Shown: piece after piece, positions 28,226 to 36,072 of the stretch
Layout of the letters: each line of letters starts with the position of its first letter
Position numbering within the stretch: the stretch's first letter is position 1
From: an uncultured archaeon
GTDB taxonomy: Archaea > Micrarchaeota > Micrarchaeia > Anstonellales > Anstonellaceae
NCBI GenBank assembly: GCA_902384555.1
Contig: CABMCD010000004.1
Coordinates: forward strand, 11,909-75,908
Length of the DNA: 64,000 bases
Direction: 5' to 3'
Position numbers and translations under genes: made by a program
The notes under the pieces: generated by a model
Database searches by the model: none
What the model was told of the DNA's origin: nothing
What the model saw: only the letters and a program-made list of their open reading frames with translations

Positions 28226-30001
28226 TTACATCGGGCCCTTGCTGCGGAACAAGTTCTCGCGCGGCTTCTCGGCCTTTTCGCCACCCTTGCCGGACGGCGG
28301 AACCGAGCCGATGGGCACGCTGGCCCAGTCCGTCACGTCCACGGTGCGCACCTTCATGGGCAGCACGTATTTCTCCCCATCGAAGAGGCGGATGATGCAC
28401 TCGCGCGTGTGCAATTTGACGAACATCTCGCGCTTGCTCTCTTCCAGCTCGGATGGAGAGACGTGTTTTTTGAAGAATTCCTCGACCTTGATTTCCATCA
28501 TGGAAGCCAGCAGGCGCGCATCCTCTTTGGTCACCTTGAAGGAAATCACGTTGCGGGCGTTGGAAATCAGCGAGTCCAGCACCGGCTTGGAGAGCTGGCC
28601 CAAATACTGGGCCGAGGCATACATGCACAAATTGAATTTCCTCGTCTCAGCCATGATGTCCTTGGTGACCTTGCTCTCCACCGTCGGGAACTCGTCCACG
28701 ATGAGCACGGTGGGGTAGGTGAATTTCTCCGAGATGGCCATGATGTACATCTGGTTGATGATGGAGCCGGCGAAGAACTTGATGATGTTGCGCGAGAAGA
28801 AATGCGGGTTGAACGACACCACGGTGACGGGGTTGTTGGCGATGGTGGTGCCCAAGTCCTCCTGGTGGCGCTTCTCGCCCAGATAGAGCAAATACTCGCC
28901 GATGAAGTTGGTGACGGGGAGGATGGCGTCGTTGAAGTGGTGCATGTAGATGTCCTGGAACTCCTTGTCGAAGAAGCGCTTCACTTCGTCGTTCTGGCAC
29001 TGGGCCGTGAATTCCATGCGCTTGCTCGAATCGGTGAGCAGCAGCGAGATGTTTTCCATCGTCAGCTGCTCAATCGAGGCCAGCAGGTGCACCGAATAGA
29101 ACACCACCCGCTCGGCATACTTGCTCTCCTGACCGATGGTGGAGGTGATGAGCTGCGCAATCAGCTGCGCAATCAGCGGGCTCTTGCTCTTGCCCACATC
29201 GAAGGGCTCCACGTAGTTTTGCACGAAGTCAATCACTTTGGCCTGCTTCATGCTTTTGGAAAACTCGCCGTGCGGGTCCACCAGCACGATGTGCGAGTTC
29301 GGATGCTTGGCCCGAATCGCGGCCACGAAGATTTGGATGAACTTGGACTTGCCCGAGCCAGAGGTGCCGACAATGAGGCCGTGCTGGAAGACGTTGAAGT
29401 TGTCCACCCCGATGTTCACGCCATCGGCTGTGAAGATGGGCTGTTTGGAGCTGAAGTAGATGGACTTGGGCACCGGGTCCAATAGCTCGATGTAGAAGAG
29501 CGGGTTGTTCTCCAAATCGATTTCGAGGAATTTGGTGGGGTTGGAGAGGAAGAGCCAGCCGCCCATGCCCTTGTTGTCCACGTATTTGCCGAACCCGTAG
29601 AAGCCGCCCAAAAAGCGGATGACGCGCAGGTGGATTTCGTCCACATTCTCCTTGAGCAGAAAGTCGAAAAGCTGGTGTCCCGAGACGAATTTGAGGCGGG
29701 GGCGCACGCGCACGTTGGGAATCATTTCCACCTCTTTGGGCGGGTTGAGGCGGAAGGGGAAGAGCAGGGCCGACTGCGAATAGAGGTCGCCGGGGTCCTG
29801 CACAAACATCTTGATGGTGTTGGAATAGCGCTTCACCACCAGGTTGATGCCGCCGAACGAGAAGAGGTGGGAGAAGTCGAGGAATTCGAAGAGCGGGATG
29901 TGGCGCCGGATAAGCTGGTCGAAGATGCGCGCATAGTCGGACGCCGTGATTTTGGGCGCATAGATGGAGAGTTCGGAATACTTCTTGGGTTTGCGGGCCA
30001 T
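28226..30001 (-). CDS. HerA/FtsK/VirB4-clade P-loop ATPase (DUF87-like), 591 aa
   Basis: Walker A VGTSGSGKSKF, Walker B VLIVDEFP, downstream ASAQ(Y) sensor-like motif. No TM helices. Immediately downstream of the Cys-rich paralog array. Confidence 0.65.
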   Translation of the reverse strand: MARKPKKYSELSIYAPKITASDYARIFDQLIRRHIPLFEFLDFSHLFSFGGINLVVKRYSNTIKMFVQDPGDLYSQSALLFPFRLNPPKEVEMIPNVRVRPRLKFVSGHQLFDFLLKENVDEIHLRVIRFLGGFYGFGKYVDNKGMGGWLFLSNPTKFLEIDLENNPLFYIELLDPVPKSIYFSSKQPIFTADGVNIGVDNFNVFQHGLIVGTSGSGKSKFIQIFVAAIRAKHPNSHIVLVDPHGEFSKSMKQAKVIDFVQNYVEPFDVGKSKSPLIAQLIAQLITSTIGQESKYAERVVFYSVHLLASIEQLTMENISLLLTDSSKRMEFTAQCQNDEVKRFFDKEFQDIYMHHFNDAILPVTNFIGEYLLYLGEKRHQEDLGTTIANNPVTVVSFNPHFFSRNIIKFFAGSIINQMYIMAISEKFTYPTVLIVDEFPTVESKVTKDIMAETRKFNLCMYASAQYLGQLSKPVLDSLISNARNVISFKVTKEDARLLASMMEIKVEEFFKKHVSPSELEESKREMFVKLHTRECIIRLFDGEKYVLPMKVRTVDVTDWASVPIGSVPPSGKGGEKAEKPRENLFRSKGPM

Positions 30002-30152
30002 ATTTGCACCAATGCAAGGTCAGGGAGTGGAACGGGGCAGAATTTTAACCCCCCGCCTGATTTTAACCATTTTTTATAATATTTTATCACATTTTTGGTA
30101 TTTAAAGGTTCTGCCGGGATTTTGCCCGGTTTCGACAATCGGCGGGAGAAGC

Positions 30153-31766
30153 CTAGGAACGGCCCCGGGCGCCCAGAGAGTAGATGGAAAAGGGCAGGGT
30201 TTTGTCTTTCCCGAGGCGGCCGGCCAAATCGGCCAGAAGCAGTTTTTTGAGCCGCAAAAAGTCCTCCCGCGGCAGCTCGACGTTGCCGATGGCGAAGCGT
30301 TTGCCCTTGACGTTGAAGCAAAAGAGGCACTCTTGGCAGTTTTCGACATGGTGGCAGAAGTAGCAGTCGGAAGAGTCCAGCGAATCGCTCACTTCAAGGC
30401 AGCGCATCAGCCTCAAGGAACGATAGGCGTGGATGCAGCTCTGGGAATAGAAGGTGTGGTCGCAGCCAAACATGCGCTCGGCATTGTGAGAGACCCAGCA
30501 GCCATAAGCGCAGTCCTTGGAATCATACAGGGTGGAGGAGGCAAAGCAGCGCACGGCGTCCGAATAGCTCACCGTGTGGATTGCTTGGGCATTTTGTCCC
30601 AATGCCACCTCGCAGGTGAAGAGGGCAATGGAGGAGAGAAGGGAGCGGGCGTTGGACAAGGACAGGGAGGCCGCGTCGGCCTCGCTGAGCTTCCGCCTGC
30701 CCGCCTCGGCAGCCTCTTCGAGCGCGACATGGGTGTTTCGCACCGGCTCGTTGAAGAGAATGGGCAGCACCCACAGCGGCCGGCCGCTCATGGCCGATTT
30801 GGTTTTGGGCGCGGCGCGCACGTGGCGCATGAGCCACTTCTCGTAATCAGACATGGGGCCCGGGAGCGGGCGGCCCAAGAGCACTTGGCAGGTGGAGGCA
30901 AAAGAGGAGTCGAGAGAGGCAGGGTAGTCGGCCGGGCGGCCGAAATAGGGGGGAGCGGAAATTCCTTCATCCACATTCCAGCTCTTGGGTCTTTTTTCCT
31001 CTTTTCCCGCCCGTGGAGGCCCGCCCAGCAGTTCGGCAATTGAAATAATGTCCTTTTTGCGCTTCAATTCGTCCGCCATTTCGGCCAGCAAATTGGCCTT
31101 GAGCTTGAAGTATTCGTCTTTGGGCAATTCGAGGTTTCCAATCAGATGCCGCTTGCCGGTCTGGTTGAAGGAAAAGAGGCACTCCTGGCAATAGCGCACA
31201 TTGGCCGAGAAATAGACGTCCGAGCAGTACTGGGTATTGGTGGTTTCGAGCATCCGCTGGCTCTTCCAGCCCTGAAAATTCTTGATGACATAATCAATTT
31301 CACCCGTGCAGTCCGAGCCGAACACATAGTTGGACTGGCGCAGCATGGCGCAGTGGGCCACATACTGGCAGTCGGACACGTCCTGTGAGTCTTGCACATA
31401 CTGGACAATGGAGCAGCGATTGGAGCGCTCCACGGCATGGAATTTGCCCAACACCACGTCGCCGGAATAGATGAAGCGTTCCTGCAGAGTGGAGAGCAAG
31501 GAATCCAAATCCTTGATGGAATTGATGTCAAACGCCGCACTGTGCCGCTTCTGGTATTCGGCCTGCTCGGAATTGGAAATATAGCGCACGTCATAGCCGA
31601 AATCGTCGTCTGCGGTGGTGACGGGCCGGTTGGAGAGGCTGGAGCGCCGGCGGGTCTGAACCGGGCCCACATACTTTTTGAGATAAGGCCCGAAATCCGA
31701 AAGCGGGCCGACCTCTTCGTGCAGCAGCACGCGGCAGGTGGAGGCCCAGGCTTCGTTGAGGTCCAT
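30153..31766 (-). CDS. Cys-rich two-module paralog a (537 aa), uncharacterised family
   Basis: Shares every conserved block with paralogs b-i: WASTC..LLxxEVG, IKDLDSL..ERFIYSGDVVLGK, CQECLFSFN..IGNLELP and CQECLFCFNVKGKRFAIGNVELP. Has its own AT-rich promoter. Confidence 0.85.
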   Translation of the reverse strand: MDLNEAWASTCRVLLHEEVGPLSDFGPYLKKYVGPVQTRRRSSLSNRPVTTADDDFGYDVRYISNSEQAEYQKRHSAAFDINSIKDLDSLLSTLQERFIYSGDVVLGKFHAVERSNRCSIVQYVQDSQDVSDCQYVAHCAMLRQSNYVFGSDCTGEIDYVIKNFQGWKSQRMLETTNTQYCSDVYFSANVRYCQECLFSFNQTGKRHLIGNLELPKDEYFKLKANLLAEMADELKRKKDIISIAELLGGPPRAGKEEKRPKSWNVDEGISAPPYFGRPADYPASLDSSFASTCQVLLGRPLPGPMSDYEKWLMRHVRAAPKTKSAMSGRPLWVLPILFNEPVRNTHVALEEAAEAGRRKLSEADAASLSLSNARSLLSSIALFTCEVALGQNAQAIHTVSYSDAVRCFASSTLYDSKDCAYGCWVSHNAERMFGCDHTFYSQSCIHAYRSLRLMRCLEVSDSLDSSDCYFCHHVENCQECLFCFNVKGKRFAIGNVELPREDFLRLKKLLLADLAGRLGKDKTLPFSIYSLGARGRS

Positions 31767-31881
31767 GGAAGAAAATGGGCCGGTTTTATGATTTAAAATT
31801 TGTTTTCAAAATGTTTTAAAATAATTGATAATTTGACTTAAATTTAGATAAAATTAAAAATAAACAGGAAAAAAGAAGAGT
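31767..31881. promoter_or_regulatory. AT-rich (>80% AT) divergent promoter region shared by paralog a (minus) and the Lrp/AsnC regulator (plus)
   Basis: 115 nt of ttttaaaat / ataaaattaaaaataa TATA-like elements in a ~62% GC genome, placed ~25-35 nt from both start codons. Confidence 0.6.
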
Positions 31882-32883
31882 ATGCAGCCCGCCGGCCCGA
31901 CAGGGCTTGACAAACTGGACCGCTCCATCCTCCACCTGCTCGACCAGGACTCGCGCGCGCCCTATTCCAAGCTTGCGCGCCGCCTGCACACCAGCCCGCA
32001 GGTGGTGAAATACCGAGTCGAGAAGCTCTACGAGCGCCAGCTGCTGCTCGCCTGCTGGCCCATGGTGGAATACCGCGGGCTTGGCTATTTCTTCGGCCTG
32101 CATTTCATCAAGCTGCAAAATCTCACGCCAAAAGAGGAGGAAAAATTCTATGCCTACCTCCACGCGCATCCCTATATCCCCATCGTCATGCGCGCACAGG
32201 GATATGCCGACCTCATTCTGGCCATTGACGGCCGCGGCATCCACCATTTGAGCGAAATCGTGCGCGAGCTGCAGAACCGCTTTTCCACCCATTTCCTGGA
32301 CTGGGACACCGTCATTCCCATCGGCTTTTCGCGCTTCAACCGAAACTATTTGGTGGGAGAAAAAGACCCGACGCCAGACGTGGCCTTCACCGGAGCCCAA
32401 GTTTCGCTTGAAACCGATGAAACCGACCGCAAGCTCCTCTGCATGCTCAATCACGACGCCCGCACGCCGCTGAGCCATATCGCGAAAAAGGCCGGCGTGT
32501 CGGCCGCCACGGCTGCCCAGCGCATCAAGCGGCTGGAAAAGGGCGGGGTGATTCAGTGCTACACCATCCTGCCCGACCACGTGAAGCTGGGCTGGCCCCG
32601 CCACCGCGTGCTCATCAAGTTCAAGAACCTCACTGAAGAGCAGGAGCGCCGCTTCTTTTCCTACTGCAATTTGCACCCCCACATCGTGCACCACATCAAG
32701 TGTTTGGGCAACTGGGACTGCGCCATTGACATCGAAATCGAAACCGGGGAGCGCCTGCGCGAGGTGCTGATGGACATCAAATCGAAATTCTCTGAAGTGG
32801 TGCAGCGCATCGAGCCCAGCTACATCTACAAAATAGACCGGTTCCGCGACATTCCGGACGAGTTTCCCCAGCTTAACAAGTGA
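31882..32883 (+). CDS. tandem-fused Lrp/AsnC-family transcriptional regulator (two HTH+RAM units in one 333-aa chain)
   Basis: Two AsnC-type HTH segments (LDKLDRSILHLLDQDSRAPYSKLARRLHTSPQVVKYRVEKL and TDRKLLCMLNHDARTPLSHIAKKAGVSAATAAQRIKRLEK), each followed by a RAM-like domain. Confidence 0.75.
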   Translation: MQPAGPTGLDKLDRSILHLLDQDSRAPYSKLARRLHTSPQVVKYRVEKLYERQLLLACWPMVEYRGLGYFFGLHFIKLQNLTPKEEEKFYAYLHAHPYIPIVMRAQGYADLILAIDGRGIHHLSEIVRELQNRFSTHFLDWDTVIPIGFSRFNRNYLVGEKDPTPDVAFTGAQVSLETDETDRKLLCMLNHDARTPLSHIAKKAGVSAATAAQRIKRLEKGGVIQCYTILPDHVKLGWPRHRVLIKFKNLTEEQERRFFSYCNLHPHIVHHIKCLGNWDCAIDIEIETGERLREVLMDIKSKFSEVVQRIEPSYIYKIDRFRDIPDEFPQLNK

Positions 32884-34489
32884 GTGGGCTTATTTTTTTG
32901 CCGCCAAGGCTGTAGATGGACCAGGGCAGGACTTTGTCTTTCTCGAGGCGCGAAGCCAGCTCGGCCAGCACCATCTTCTTCACGCGCAGATATTGCTCGC
33001 GCGGGTATTCGACGTTTCCTATCGCATATCGTTTTGCCTTGATGTTGAAGCAGAACATGCACTCTTGGCAGTTCTCGATGTTGTGGCAGAAGAAACAGTC
33101 CGAGCAGTTGTTGCAGTTGTCCAGCTCGAAGCAGCGGCTCACTTTGGTGGAGAAATGGCAGTTGATTCCAAACGAGCTTTCCCGCGCCTCCCGGCAGCCG
33201 AAGAGAAATTCGCACGAGCGGGGCATCAGGCAGTAGGCGCACGATTTGGACAGCATGAACAGCACGCCATGATAGCAGTCGCTGGAGTCGATGGCCAGCG
33301 GAGCCTCGATATCGTTGGACAGCTTGCCGGTGCGCCAAGTGTGGCAGAAATAGGCCAGAGGGCCGATGAGGGCGGGAGCCGTGCGCAGGGACAAGCCTTT
33401 CACTTCCTCTTCACCCAGCGCGGCATGCTCGCCAAAGAAATCGGCCTGTGGTTGGGTGAGCAGGCGCTCGGGCGGGAAGGACATGAAATTGGAATAATCC
33501 ACCCGCCACAACTCTTCGCCGCTGGCGCAGGATTTGGCCTTCTCCATATGGACGGCCGAATTGGACCCCAGCAGCTTGGCATAGGCACCCACCGGACCCA
33601 TGCGCTTGCCGAGCAGCACTTGGCTGGTCTGGCCAAAAGCCTCCTCAATTTTGCTCTGGTCTTCGGCTTCGGCCTTCCATTTGCCCCACTCCGGCAGGGC
33701 CATCACGGCCTTGAGCTTGGAGTGGTCGGGTTTGCGGTTGGCCGTCATTTCCACCAGCGAGGGCAGCCTCTTCTTTTCAGACAATTCCGTGCGCATTTCC
33801 TCCAGCAGCTTGGCCTTGATTTGCAGGTATTGGTCTTTGGGCAGGGCGAGGTTGCCGATGCGCCTGCGCTGGTTCTTGAGATGGAAGGAAAAGAGGCATT
33901 CCTGACAGCCGGTAAGGCCGTGCGAATAATAGCAGTCGGAGGAAAATTCGGATTTGGAGAGCATGAGCGAGCGCATGCAGTCCCACGTGGCCGAGGTGCG
34001 GATGCAGTAGTGCACCGGCCCCATGCCGTGGCAGCCGAAGAGGTAGTCGCTGTATCCGCCCCGGGAGCAATAGGCGGCAAATTTGGAGAACGCCACCCGC
34101 TCGCAGTGATGCGTGTGAAAGCAGTCGGTGATGACGGTGCTGTCCTGCACGAACTTGGAGTTGCCCAGCACGATGTTGCCGCAATAGATGGCGCGCTCCG
34201 ACACCGCCTCGGCCAGCGAGTCGATGTCTTTTATTTCGTTGATGGAGAGGGGGCCGTATTGGGCGTTCAAGTCCAGCTCGTCATAGCTGGCCATCCGGAC
34301 TGCCTTTGGGTAATTGGAATAAACCGAAACCACGTCCTTGCCCGAGAGGCAGGAGGGGCGCACCATGCGCGGGCCGTGGTCTTCCAAAAGCCAGTTCTCG
34401 AATTCGTAAAGCCCGCCGACTTCGCCGCCCAGCACGGTGCGGCAGGTGCTGCGCCAGGCCTCTTCCAGTTCGGCGGACGGCTTGCTCAT
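32873..34489 (-). CDS. Cys-rich two-module paralog b (~538 aa)
   Basis: Start at MSKPSAELEEAWRSTCRTVLG, with an ATGA overlap with the stop of paralog c. 3' end overlaps the convergent Lrp gene by 11 nt. Confidence 0.85.
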   Translation of the reverse strand: MSKPSAELEEAWRSTCRTVLGGEVGGLYEFENWLLEDHGPRMVRPSCLSGKDVVSVYSNYPKAVRMASYDELDLNAQYGPLSINEIKDIDSLAEAVSERAIYCGNIVLGNSKFVQDSTVITDCFHTHHCERVAFSKFAAYCSRGGYSDYLFGCHGMGPVHYCIRTSATWDCMRSLMLSKSEFSSDCYYSHGLTGCQECLFSFHLKNQRRRIGNLALPKDQYLQIKAKLLEEMRTELSEKKRLPSLVEMTANRKPDHSKLKAVMALPEWGKWKAEAEDQSKIEEAFGQTSQVLLGKRMGPVGAYAKLLGSNSAVHMEKAKSCASGEELWRVDYSNFMSFPPERLLTQPQADFFGEHAALGEEEVKGLSLRTAPALIGPLAYFCHTWRTGKLSNDIEAPLAIDSSDCYHGVLFMLSKSCAYCLMPRSCEFLFGCREARESSFGINCHFSTKVSRCFELDNCNNCSDCFFCHNIENCQECMFCFNIKAKRYAIGNVEYPREQYLRVKKMVLAELASRLEKDKVLPWSIYSLGGKKISPLTC

Positions 34490-36072
34490 GGCTTGCACCC
34501 CAGATTGAAGATGGAGAGCGGGAGGGTTTTATCCTTTTCCAGACGGGCCGCCAGCTCGGCCAGCACCGTCTTCTTGATGCGCAAATAGTCTTCCTTCTTC
34601 ATTTCCACATTTCCGATGGCATACCGCTTGCCTTTCACGTTGAAGCAGAAGAGGCACTCCTCGCAATTCTCGACATTGTGGCAGAAATAGCAGTCGGTCG
34701 AGCTGTTGCAGGAATGGCATTCCAGACAGCGGGACAAATGGGCCGACAGGCAGCAGTTGGCGCAGAATTTCGAGTCGCGGATGGCATGGCAGCCGAAGCA
34801 GGACTCGGACTCCAGATAGTAGTAGCCATAGGCGCAGTTCTTGGAGGTGACGTGGACCACGCTTTGCAGCATGTTGGAGCAGTCCACGCCGATGAAGTCC
34901 AGATGGTTGTTGAAGTTCTTGCCCACGAAATAGTCGGAGCAGAAAAAGGCCGCATCGGAGACGGCCTTGAACATGCTCTCAAAGGAGGGCGTTGCGCTGG
35001 GCTCGGTCATGCGCGTTTCGCGGCCCAAAAAGAGGGCGTCCGCTTCCCCAACGAGGCGGTCGTGGGGGTAGAAGGAGAAGGCGGCATAATCCGGCAAGCC
35101 GATGCTCGCGCCGGGACGCAGGGAGGGATAGTGATAGATGGCGCGCGCCGTCTGGGAGAGCCAGGGGCCATAGGGCGCAATGGGGGAGAGCGGGCGGCCC
35201 AGCAAGATAGACATGGTTTTGGAAAATGACTCTTCCACGGGCTTGGGGTTCCAGGGCTTCGCAGCGGCGGGCGGGGCGCGCGAGAGCAGGGCTTGGGTTT
35301 TGGCACGGTCAAAGGAGAGCGAGGCGATGCGCTCCTCCAAGCGAGGCAAGGTGCGCTTGTCCTGAAGCTCGTGCGCCATTTGCTCCATCAGCGCCTTCTT
35401 GAGGGCCACATACTTGTCTTTGGGCAGCTGCAAATTTCCAATGCAATAGCGCGAGCTGCGCAGGCCGAAAGAAAACAGGCAGTCGTTGCACTCGTGGATG
35501 TTGTGGCAGTAGGCGCAGTCATTCACATAGCTGGAATGCGACACTTCGAGGCAGCGCACGTTCTTGTCGTTGTTGCTGATGCCGATGCAGTAAGAGCAAT
35601 GGCCGTGATTTTGAGAGCCGAAAATGCAGTCCCCGTATTCGAGGCAGTAGGAATAGGCGATGTATTTGGAGAACGAGATTTGGGTGGATTCGAGCACATA
35701 ATGCGAGTCAATGACGTCCGAGCTTGATTGCACATGGGCCGACTTGCCCAGCACGATGTCGCCGGTGTAGATGAAGCGCTCGCCGAGGGCGGAGAGGATG
35801 GAGTCGATGTCTTTGAGCTGGTCAAGCGGGAGAGGCGCATAGGTTTTTTTCCAGTCCACTTCGCCCAAAGACTGGAAAGAGCCGCACTCGTGCGCGCCGG
35901 TGGATACCAGAGCGACCTCTTTTCCTGAAAGGCAGGACTTTTGCTTGGCGGGCGGGCGCGAGCGGCTCTCCAAATAATTGGAATAGTGGGAGAGCTCCCC
36001 GAGCTCTTGGCCAAAAATGACTTTGCAGGTGCTGGCCCAGCGGGAGTTGAGGGTGTCGTAGGGCTCGCTCAT
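34486..36072 (-). CDS. Cys-rich two-module paralog c (528 aa)
   Basis: Start at MSEPYDTLNSRWASTCKVIFG. The 956-aa ORF-track call is an out-of-frame extension. ATGA overlap with paralog d. Confidence 0.85.
   Translation of the reverse strand: MSEPYDTLNSRWASTCKVIFGQELGELSHYSNYLESRSRPPAKQKSCLSGKEVALVSTGAHECGSFQSLGEVDWKKTYAPLPLDQLKDIDSILSALGERFIYTGDIVLGKSAHVQSSSDVIDSHYVLESTQISFSKYIAYSYCLEYGDCIFGSQNHGHCSYCIGISNNDKNVRCLEVSHSSYVNDCAYCHNIHECNDCLFSFGLRSSRYCIGNLQLPKDKYVALKKALMEQMAHELQDKRTLPRLEERIASLSFDRAKTQALLSRAPPAAAKPWNPKPVEESFSKTMSILLGRPLSPIAPYGPWLSQTARAIYHYPSLRPGASIGLPDYAAFSFYPHDRLVGEADALFLGRETRMTEPSATPSFESMFKAVSDAAFFCSDYFVGKNFNNHLDFIGVDCSNMLQSVVHVTSKNCAYGYYYLESESCFGCHAIRDSKFCANCCLSAHLSRCLECHSCNSSTDCYFCHNVENCEECLFCFNVKGKRYAIGNVEMKKEDYLRIKKTVLAELAARLEKDKTLPLSIFNLGCKP

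Follow-up and report, generated by a model that had tools for sequence, protein, structure and literature searches.

In Escherichia coli, AsnC is transcribed divergently from asnA and its own promoter is autoregulated. For the archaeal members of this Lrp/AsnC, or feast/famine regulatory protein (FFRP), family, a 2010 review reports that most autoregulate and that Ptr2, LysM and Ss-LrpB act as activators, and makes no mention of fusions (PMC2995911). The only solved protein in which two Lrp/AsnC units are fused is NirDL, or fused AhbA-AhbB (4CH7, 4CZC and 4CZD); most archaea that possess AhbA and AhbB have the two as a fusion, and the signature of both is HXYXR, the Arg of which is essential in AhbB (PMC4145669). 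Here we analyse a tandem-fused Lrp/AsnC regulator gene in a 64-kb stretch of contig CABMCD010000004.1 from an uncultured Micrarchaeota archaeon (the window, meaning the whole stretch analysed, with an overall GC content of 0.61), where it lies back-to-back with paralog a, the lead member of an array of Cys-rich paralogs. In full-text literature searches we found neither tandem-fused Lrp/AsnC transcription factors nor this Micrarchaeota array described.

We favour, with slightly better than even confidence, the reading that the gene encodes a single-chain Lrp/AsnC factor with a conserved bidirectional promoter cassette, which would serve both for autoregulation and for control of the divergent gene. 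Such a system belongs to a kind already known, the Lrp/AsnC regulator in a divergent pair, and nothing in it is categorically new; what is new is the single-chain double unit, the asymmetric conservation of its helix-turn-helix (HTH) domains and the conserved cassette with alternating cargo, in DPANN archaea and in bacteria of the candidate phyla radiation (CPR). The features that carry this reading are as follows.

31882-32883, + strand: tandem-fused Lrp/AsnC (FFRP) regulator gene, 333 aa, two winged HTH (wHTH)-RAM units in a single chain (open reading frame, Pfam, AlphaFold2 (AF2), Foldseek)
31906-32334, + strand: N-terminal unit, wHTH at aa 9-51 and RAM-like alpha/beta domain at aa 55-151 (AF2 secondary structure)
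32416-32844, + strand: C-terminal unit, wHTH at aa 179-220 and RAM-like domain at aa 224-321 (Pfam, phmmer, AF2)
31767-31881, no strand assigned: bidirectional AT-rich control region, 115 nt, GC 0.21 (composition, profile match)
30153-31766, - strand: paralog a, 537 aa, lead member of the Cys-rich family and divergent partner of the regulator (open reading frame)

Two complete HTH and RAM units are present in the regulator, and the RAM parts are divergent at the sequence level. Pfam detects two AsnC-type HTH domains, at aa 9-49 and about aa 179-225 (PF13404, E 2.6e-27 over two stretches, and also PF13412), and NCBIfam returns AsnC, LrpA and LysM matches for both halves, all sub-threshold. The halves align with each other at 28% identity over 127 aa (E 7e-19), through both the HTH and the alpha/beta part. 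In the AF2 model, made with 58 homologues (predicted local distance difference test score, pLDDT, 94.9; predicted template modelling score, pTM, 0.91), three helices followed by beta-beta-alpha-beta-beta-alpha-beta occur twice, and each half models as a wHTH with a beta-alpha-beta-beta-alpha-beta RAM fold. Foldseek superposes each half on the Lrp/AsnC regulators 2DBB, 2CYY and 2E1C with target template modelling (TM) scores of 0.78-0.80, and the per-half matches PH0061, PH1519/FL11 and AsnC have 21-27% identity and target TM scores of 0.75-0.80. Moreover, a phmmer search of PDB sequences aligned aa 171-296 of the regulator with aa 18-141 of PH1519/FL11, through HTH and RAM. Two marks of the Lrp/AsnC family are present, the AsnC-type wHTH by Pfam and AF2 and the RAM fold, by structure, in both halves; this is the per-half organization of FL11/PH1519, PH0061, P. 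furiosus LrpA, S. tokodaii Grp/ST1022 and E. coli AsnC, and the gene, like those of archaeal Lrp/AsnC regulators, faces a divergent putative target across an AT-rich promoter.

Unlike in known Lrp/AsnC proteins, the two units lie in one chain, which makes the 'dimer' covalent and asymmetric. When the 58 homologues were aligned end to end, the N-terminal recognition helix (aa 39-51, SPQVVKYRVE) was the most conserved segment of the family and nearly invariant, with a mean column identity of 0.85, whereas the C-terminal recognition helix was variable (0.55). The GxxD loops are kept in both RAM halves (G107-Y-A-D110 and G276-N-W-D279). These comparisons strongly suggest a single-chain, pseudo-dimeric Lrp/AsnC (feast/famine) transcription factor that would bind DNA, and the fold together with the conserved GxxD loops points to putative ligand sensing at the RAM domains.

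The tandem fusion is not a one-off, it is a sizeable, uncharacterised family across DPANN archaea and CPR bacteria. The regulator is 100% identical to an NCBI protein labelled 'uncultured archaeon', and approximately 60 proteins annotated as Micrarchaeota at NCBI share 54-85% identity with it, each about 330 aa in length. In GTDB genomes, our scan located 18 Micrarchaeota loci and five CPR/Patescibacteria loci at 34-36% identity, and a HMMER search over 1.84 billion representatives gave 285 clusters (50% identity) at E<=1e-30, nearly all of 320-340 aa and aligned end to end, with Nanoarchaeota among the named members. The CPR contigs (L024-L028) carry full-length tandem homologues in Magasanikbacteria, Moraniibacteriota and other CPR, which suggests inter-domain sharing of the regulator, perhaps of the cassette too, between DPANN and CPR. 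Some Micrarchaeota contigs have two tandem Lrp/AsnC genes a few genes apart (L037:1-895 (+) and L037:3375-4385 (-); L034:6860-7852 (-)), and in both L037 and L034 the regulator copy beside paralog a has after it one gene of NMT1-like and one of CxxCxxCC type.

Within the window, the composition of the control region stands apart, as its lowest 100-nt segment has a GC content of 0.14 and no segment elsewhere in the 64 kb falls below 0.32. The maintenance of such a segment in a genome of 61% GC argues for selection or constraint on it. Regions upstream of the regulator measure 93-148 nt in 26/26 loci, and their GC content is 0.14-0.28 in the 17 loci for which it was computed, whatever the divergent cargo. 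Three T/A-rich boxes are recognized in the window region.

31788-31799, no strand assigned: box E1, ATGATTTAAAAT, TTTAAAA core from -90 relative to the regulator ATG, 25-32 nt upstream of the paralog-a ATG (direct repeat D1)
31811-31822, no strand assigned: box E2, ATGTTTTAAAAT, core TTTTAAAA from -68 relative to the regulator ATG, 22-23 nt from E1 (family conservation)
31847-31861, + strand: the -30 box, GATAAAATTAAAAAT, centred at about -28 from the regulator ATG (identical 14-mer in L031)

E1 and E2 form a direct repeat, and both are conserved together with the -30 box (identical over 14 nt) in L031, the closest relative at 85% regulator identity. Across the control regions of the family, E2 is the most conserved element (TTTTTTTAAAAAA). 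In the window clade and the 62-73% clade, T/A boxes stand at -89 to -91 (E1), -68 to -70 and -29 to -30 from the regulator ATG, and in the 55-58% clade at -70 (again E1), -47 to -52, -30 and -9; an equivalent of the -30 box is found at -28 to -31 in 16/26 loci, covering all three clades. The alignment of the 55-58% clade contains the invariant blocks TATTTATAATCT, TTTTTTTAAAAAA, TTTATA and ATAATTTAAAA-ATG, and these blocks are present with any cargo, be it asnB, its C-terminal domain, paralog a or another gene. Across loci, E1, the outermost box, is 25-42 nt away from the start codon of the divergent gene, and the spacing between E2 and E1 is kept at about 20-23 bp. From E2 to the -30 box there are about 20 bp in one clade group and about 40 bp in the other, an indel of approximately 20 bp, or about two helical turns, by which phasing is preserved.

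A profile hidden Markov model (HMM) of the control regions of the other clades had the window region as its sole match in the window (+ strand, 14.6 bits, E 9e-4), with E1 and E2 aligned in register, and none of 200 shuffled versions of that region reached this score (maximum 1.3 bits). Sites with at least five T followed by at least five A occurred 12 times in 2,980 nt of control regions vs 8 times in 502 kb elsewhere, an enrichment of >200-fold. Judged from these alignments, the control region is conserved and inherited together with the regulator. E1 is a candidate TATA box for a leaderless paralog-a transcript, and the place of the -30 box suggests a candidate TATA box for a leaderless regulator mRNA. 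E2 would be the best candidate for the operator or upstream activating sequence (UAS) of the regulator, given its conservation, the highest of any box, and its fixed phase relative to the divergent TATA box.

To compare the genes across the cassette, neighbours in the gene tables of related loci were labelled by tblastn/blastp and Pfam. The gene most often divergent from the regulator encodes a glutamine-dependent asparagine synthase (asnB; GATase_7 + Asn_synthase, 511-766 aa), found in 11 loci (L004, L006, L007, L008, L011, L015, L017, L018, L020, L023 and L032). Long forms of it end in a DIT1/PvcA-like domain of approximately 230 aa, which is the next gene where the asnB form is short and is by itself the divergent partner in L001, L010 and L022, so that asnB or its C-terminal domain occupies this place in 14 loci. 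This domain (Pfam DIT1_PvcA, a weak match, E 4e-4; L018:7634-9898 (-), L004:7694-9885 (-), L022:9128-9901 (-) and L001:9108-9893 (-)), whether fused, separate downstream or alone, may be the truly conserved partner. The 11 loci resemble E. coli AsnC-asnA in that the regulator is divergent from an asparagine-forming enzyme, and differ from it in the type of partner, asnB rather than asnA. The window departs further, with an uncharacterised Cys-rich paralog as partner and an archaeal basal machinery (TATA box and TFB recognition element, BRE); no asnB was found in the 64-kb window, and the divergent layout with asparagine synthetase is thus seen in the 11 related loci and not there.

In eight loci, the window, L031, L012, L014, L033, L034, L036 and L038, the partner directly divergent from the tandem regulator belongs to the paralog-a orthogroup, and in two to three further loci paralog a is one gene away, with a small gene (168-186 aa) in between in L002 and L037. 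This orthogroup is sharply bounded: fifteen proteins are >=60% identical and every other family member is <=44%. When six loci were looked up from the side of paralog a, five had an adjacent tandem regulator, the exception being L035. The array as a whole adjoins the regulator in 14 loci; asnB lies between the two in L011, L018 and L020, and the stand-alone C-terminal domain does so in L022. The sequence-only reading had called the regulator dedicated and had suggested that paralog a is conditionally expressed and that the system responds to a small-molecule signal. The recurrent synteny and the box positions lend weight to a regulatory link with paralog a, but dedication to the array does not hold, as asnB or its C-terminal domain is the commoner partner.

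On the other side of the regulator, the 55-58% clade has a co-directional CxxCxxCC (PF03692) gene 5-10 nt after it (L002:10990-11610, L012:6480-7013, L018:10998-11537, L022:10998-11528 and L033:6377-6910), then NMD3, probably in an operon with the regulator; the PF03692 gene is absent downstream of the window regulator.

The same neighbourhoods bear on another explanation, which we consider unlikely, namely that the regulator is an ancestral AsnC analogue whose real targets are asnB and its own gene, that it senses asparagine, glutamine or a related metabolite, and that asnB was lost here, leaving paralog a as a neighbour by default, with the regulator acting on its own promoter alone or at other places and the array not meaningfully controlled. 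The prevalence of asnB partners and its absence from the window agree with this, as does the CPR locus L024, where a long asnB lies one gene from the regulator; moreover, with the array just beyond asnB in L011, L018 and L020, and beyond its C-terminal domain in L022, deletion of asnB alone would give an adjacency like that of the window. However, in loci without asnB the gene abutting the cassette is always a member of the paralog-a orthogroup and not a random member of the array, and this orthogroup was not found in the arrays that lie behind asnB. The pairing also persists with very divergent regulators, that of L037 being only 30% identical to the window regulator and that of L034 forming the deepest branch of the regulator tree, and E1 is at TATA distance from the paralog-a start codon. 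In this neighbour-joining (NJ) tree, which has no support values, asnB and paralog-a contexts are interleaved. A scheme of two ancient regulator paralogs, one with asnB and one with paralog a, is unsupported by this interleaving, within the limits of a tree lacking support values and of the very divergent copies carried by L034 and L037.

Alternatively, the protein would serve as a global feast/famine regulator that associates with the nucleoid and acts on numerous AT-rich targets in a gene-poor DPANN genome, and the local pair would represent its own autoregulated promoter only. We regard this as rather improbable. The family is found almost throughout Micrarchaeota, with relatives in Nanoarchaeota and CPR, its neighbours vary, and 12-mers related to the boxes (<=2 mismatches) occur 11 times in the window vs 3 expected, all of which would suit a global role, but the exact E1 and E2 12-mers are confined to the control region in a search of the window, runs of T4A4 or longer appear at only two places in it, and two specific divergent partners recur across loci rather than random ones.

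The last explanation concerns NirDL, which is the sole full-length Foldseek match to the regulator (4CH7/4CZC; E 1.7e-15, TM 0.62-0.66, 13% identity). At the positions of the HXYXR signature the regulator reads H96-P-Y-I-P100 and H265-P-H-I-V269, P100 being invariant in the family, and its NCBIfam scores are 29.8 bits for AhbA (cut-off 140) and 26.2 bits for AhbB (cut-off 125); with the motif absent and scores this far below the cut-offs, a siroheme decarboxylase of the NirDL/AhbAB type was rejected. That the protein is an enzyme or enzyme subunit of Lrp/AsnC fold, like the fused siroheme decarboxylases, and acts in a small-molecule pathway with the neighbouring amidotransferase, DIT1-like and CxxCxxCC proteins, is very improbable. 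The NirDL match, weak matches to the NirdL-like_HTH and AhbA/AhbB models, the archaeal AhbA-AhbB fusions and the enzymes that are the conserved neighbours of the regulator would fit it. Besides the motif and the scores, however, identity to NirDL is 13% against 21-27% per half to bona fide regulators, and conservation peaks in the N-terminal recognition helix, which carries K/R residues. The annotated neighbours of related loci included neither heme nor nir genes (window flanks beyond the ATPase gene downstream of paralog a were not scanned).

For the favoured reading, a single-chain regulator acting on its bidirectional cassette, we propose the following course of events. The cassette would hold one TATA-like box for each divergent gene and the central T(n)A(n) box E2, approximately 20-23 bp, or about two helical turns, from the divergent TATA box. 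The regulator would bind at E2 and/or at boxes beside the TATA elements, those beside its own TATA box and transcription start site (TSS) being candidates for autoregulation. Binding may then tune how TBP, TFB and RNA polymerase are recruited to both promoters, with either sign of regulation conceivable, and so bring about autoregulation together with control of the divergent gene, which would be the asparagine synthase with its DIT1/PvcA-like domain in most relatives and paralog a here and in several others. A small ligand, probably an amino acid, would modulate occupancy or oligomeric state at the RAM domains; from the recurrent asnB partner, our guess would be a ligand of the Asn/Gln/Asp group.

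Several observations weigh against this reading. The RAM model PF01037 scores 21 bits in the regulator, below the Pfam cut-off of 25, and the structural relatives of the fusion, as represented by NirDL, are enzymes. Palindromic Lrp boxes, which the sequence-only reading had named as the thing to search for in the AT-rich region, were rejected: the control region holds imperfect palindromes at 31824-31861 (77%) and 31809-31826 (83%), neither left arm is kept in L031, such dyads are expected in 80% AT sequence, and no conserved dyad-symmetric Lrp-type box was found on comparison with this closest relative, T(n)A(n) boxes at fixed positions being conserved instead. The sub-threshold RAM domains and the missing palindrome both set the regulator apart from known Lrp/AsnC proteins; since its two HTHs differ, a non-palindromic site is expected, in keeping with the absence of conserved dyads from the comparison. 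Possibly every T/A box is a basal promoter element and none is an operator. In the closest clade, paralog a is not directly beside the regulator in L029 and L035: L029 has the regulator, a divergent methyltransferase-like gene and the contig end, and L035, from the same sample, has paralog a between a partial upstream gene, possibly methyltransferase-like, and a HerA-like ATPase gene; L035 probably joins L029. The order of paralog a and ATPase is shared with the window, whose ATPase is 86% identical to that of L035. Finally, the interleaved contexts in the NJ tree mean that adjacency could partly reflect repeated loss of asnB beside a pre-existing array.

The surroundings of the pair in the window include three further features.

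32873-34498, - strand: paralog b, 538-541 aa, final gene of the closely packed array upstream (open reading frame)
32893-32899, + strand: T7 run, candidate archaeal oligo-T terminator, 10 nt past the regulator stop (sequence)
28226-30001, - strand: HerA/FtsK-like P-loop ATPase, 591 aa, downstream of paralog a (Pfam DUF87/HerA, TrwB, FtsK; NCBIfam)

The start of paralog a and the ATG of the regulator are on opposite strands, 115 nt apart, and the last 11 bp of the regulator (32873-32883) overlap the stop region of paralog b. The regulator is the only + strand gene within a - strand run of paralogs from 30153 to about 43922, and separates paralog a from the remaining members, which upstream of b overlap one another by 4-13 nt (34486 to about 43922). 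What the sequence-only reading had described at this place is confirmed, namely two Lrp/AsnC units in one chain, an AT-rich region extreme for the genome, a convergent 3' overlap with paralog b, and a lone + strand regulator back-to-back with paralog a across a promoter-like island. Oligo-T tracts serve as terminators of archaeal transcription, and on account of the T7 run after its stop the regulator looks like a compact monocistronic unit; it would be transcribed on its own from the TATA-like box approximately 28 nt upstream of the ATG and end at this run. On the opposite strand, the T7 run falls in the Lys-Lys-Ile codons that end paralog b, and without a comparable T-run past the paralog b stop, array transcripts may run antisense into the regulator gene. 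In L031 (1732-2843), two inserted genes, one of the AbiEii family and one of 176 aa, separate the regulator from the array paralog that comes next.

Paralog a itself has no Pfam, NCBIfam or PADLOC match. Its AF2 model (pLDDT 87, pTM 0.90) shows short-strand, beta-solenoid-like regions and has no significant match in the PDB. Each paralog of approximately 530 aa is an internal duplication of a unit of approximately 260 aa ending in a Cys-rich motif (...CYFCHN.ENC.EC.FCFN.KGKR.AIGN...), and half-size paralog genes occur as adjacent pairs in the window (42404-43165 and 43155-43922) and in L033, L036 and L037. A link of the locus to defence systems was rejected, PADLOC having returned generic HTH and HerA matches only.

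Between paralog a and the ATPase gene there is a gap of 151 nt (30002-30152) with TATA-like boxes of its own, and the ATPase probably has its own promoter; the suggestion of the sequence-only reading that the ATPase might be expressed together with paralog a is therefore not implied by the layout. Read on the - strand, the gap contains the hairpin CCGGGCAAAATCCCGG and the TATA-like boxes CCTTTAAATACC and GATAAAATATTATAAAAAAT, and GATAAAATATTATAAAAAAT resembles the regulator's own -30 box. This gap is possibly a separate promoter, perhaps recognised by the same regulator.

A bolder proposal, which we advance tentatively and with considerable doubt, is that the regulator and its AT region of approximately 110 nt form a portable, phase-locked bidirectional module that has been repeatedly re-used to couple an amino-acid or nitrogen signal either to the asnB/DIT1-like enzyme or to the lead gene of the lineage-specific Cys-rich beta-solenoid array with its HerA-like ATPase. 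If it were true, the regulator would be a covalently dimeric, asymmetric Lrp whose invariant N-terminal HTH reads a fixed T/A box and whose C-terminal HTH is the variable one, the tandem family, which extends to CPR, would make up a separate and uncharacterised class of single-chain FFRP regulators, and an unknown multi-paralog system of an episymbiotic DPANN archaeon would be nutrient-gated.

Very few regulators can be recognised in DPANN archaea and CPR bacteria, and gene control in these organisms is almost unknown. The tandem family would be a tractable entry point, with a small, confidently modelled protein and a likely operator within a region of approximately 110 nt that has three or four boxes at fixed positions. 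A covalent, asymmetric 'dimer' predicts non-palindromic operators, which would explain why classical searches for Lrp boxes fail. Moreover, the alternating cargo leads to a testable hypothesis, that expression of the array is conditional on a metabolite, and would also offer a handle on the function of the array.

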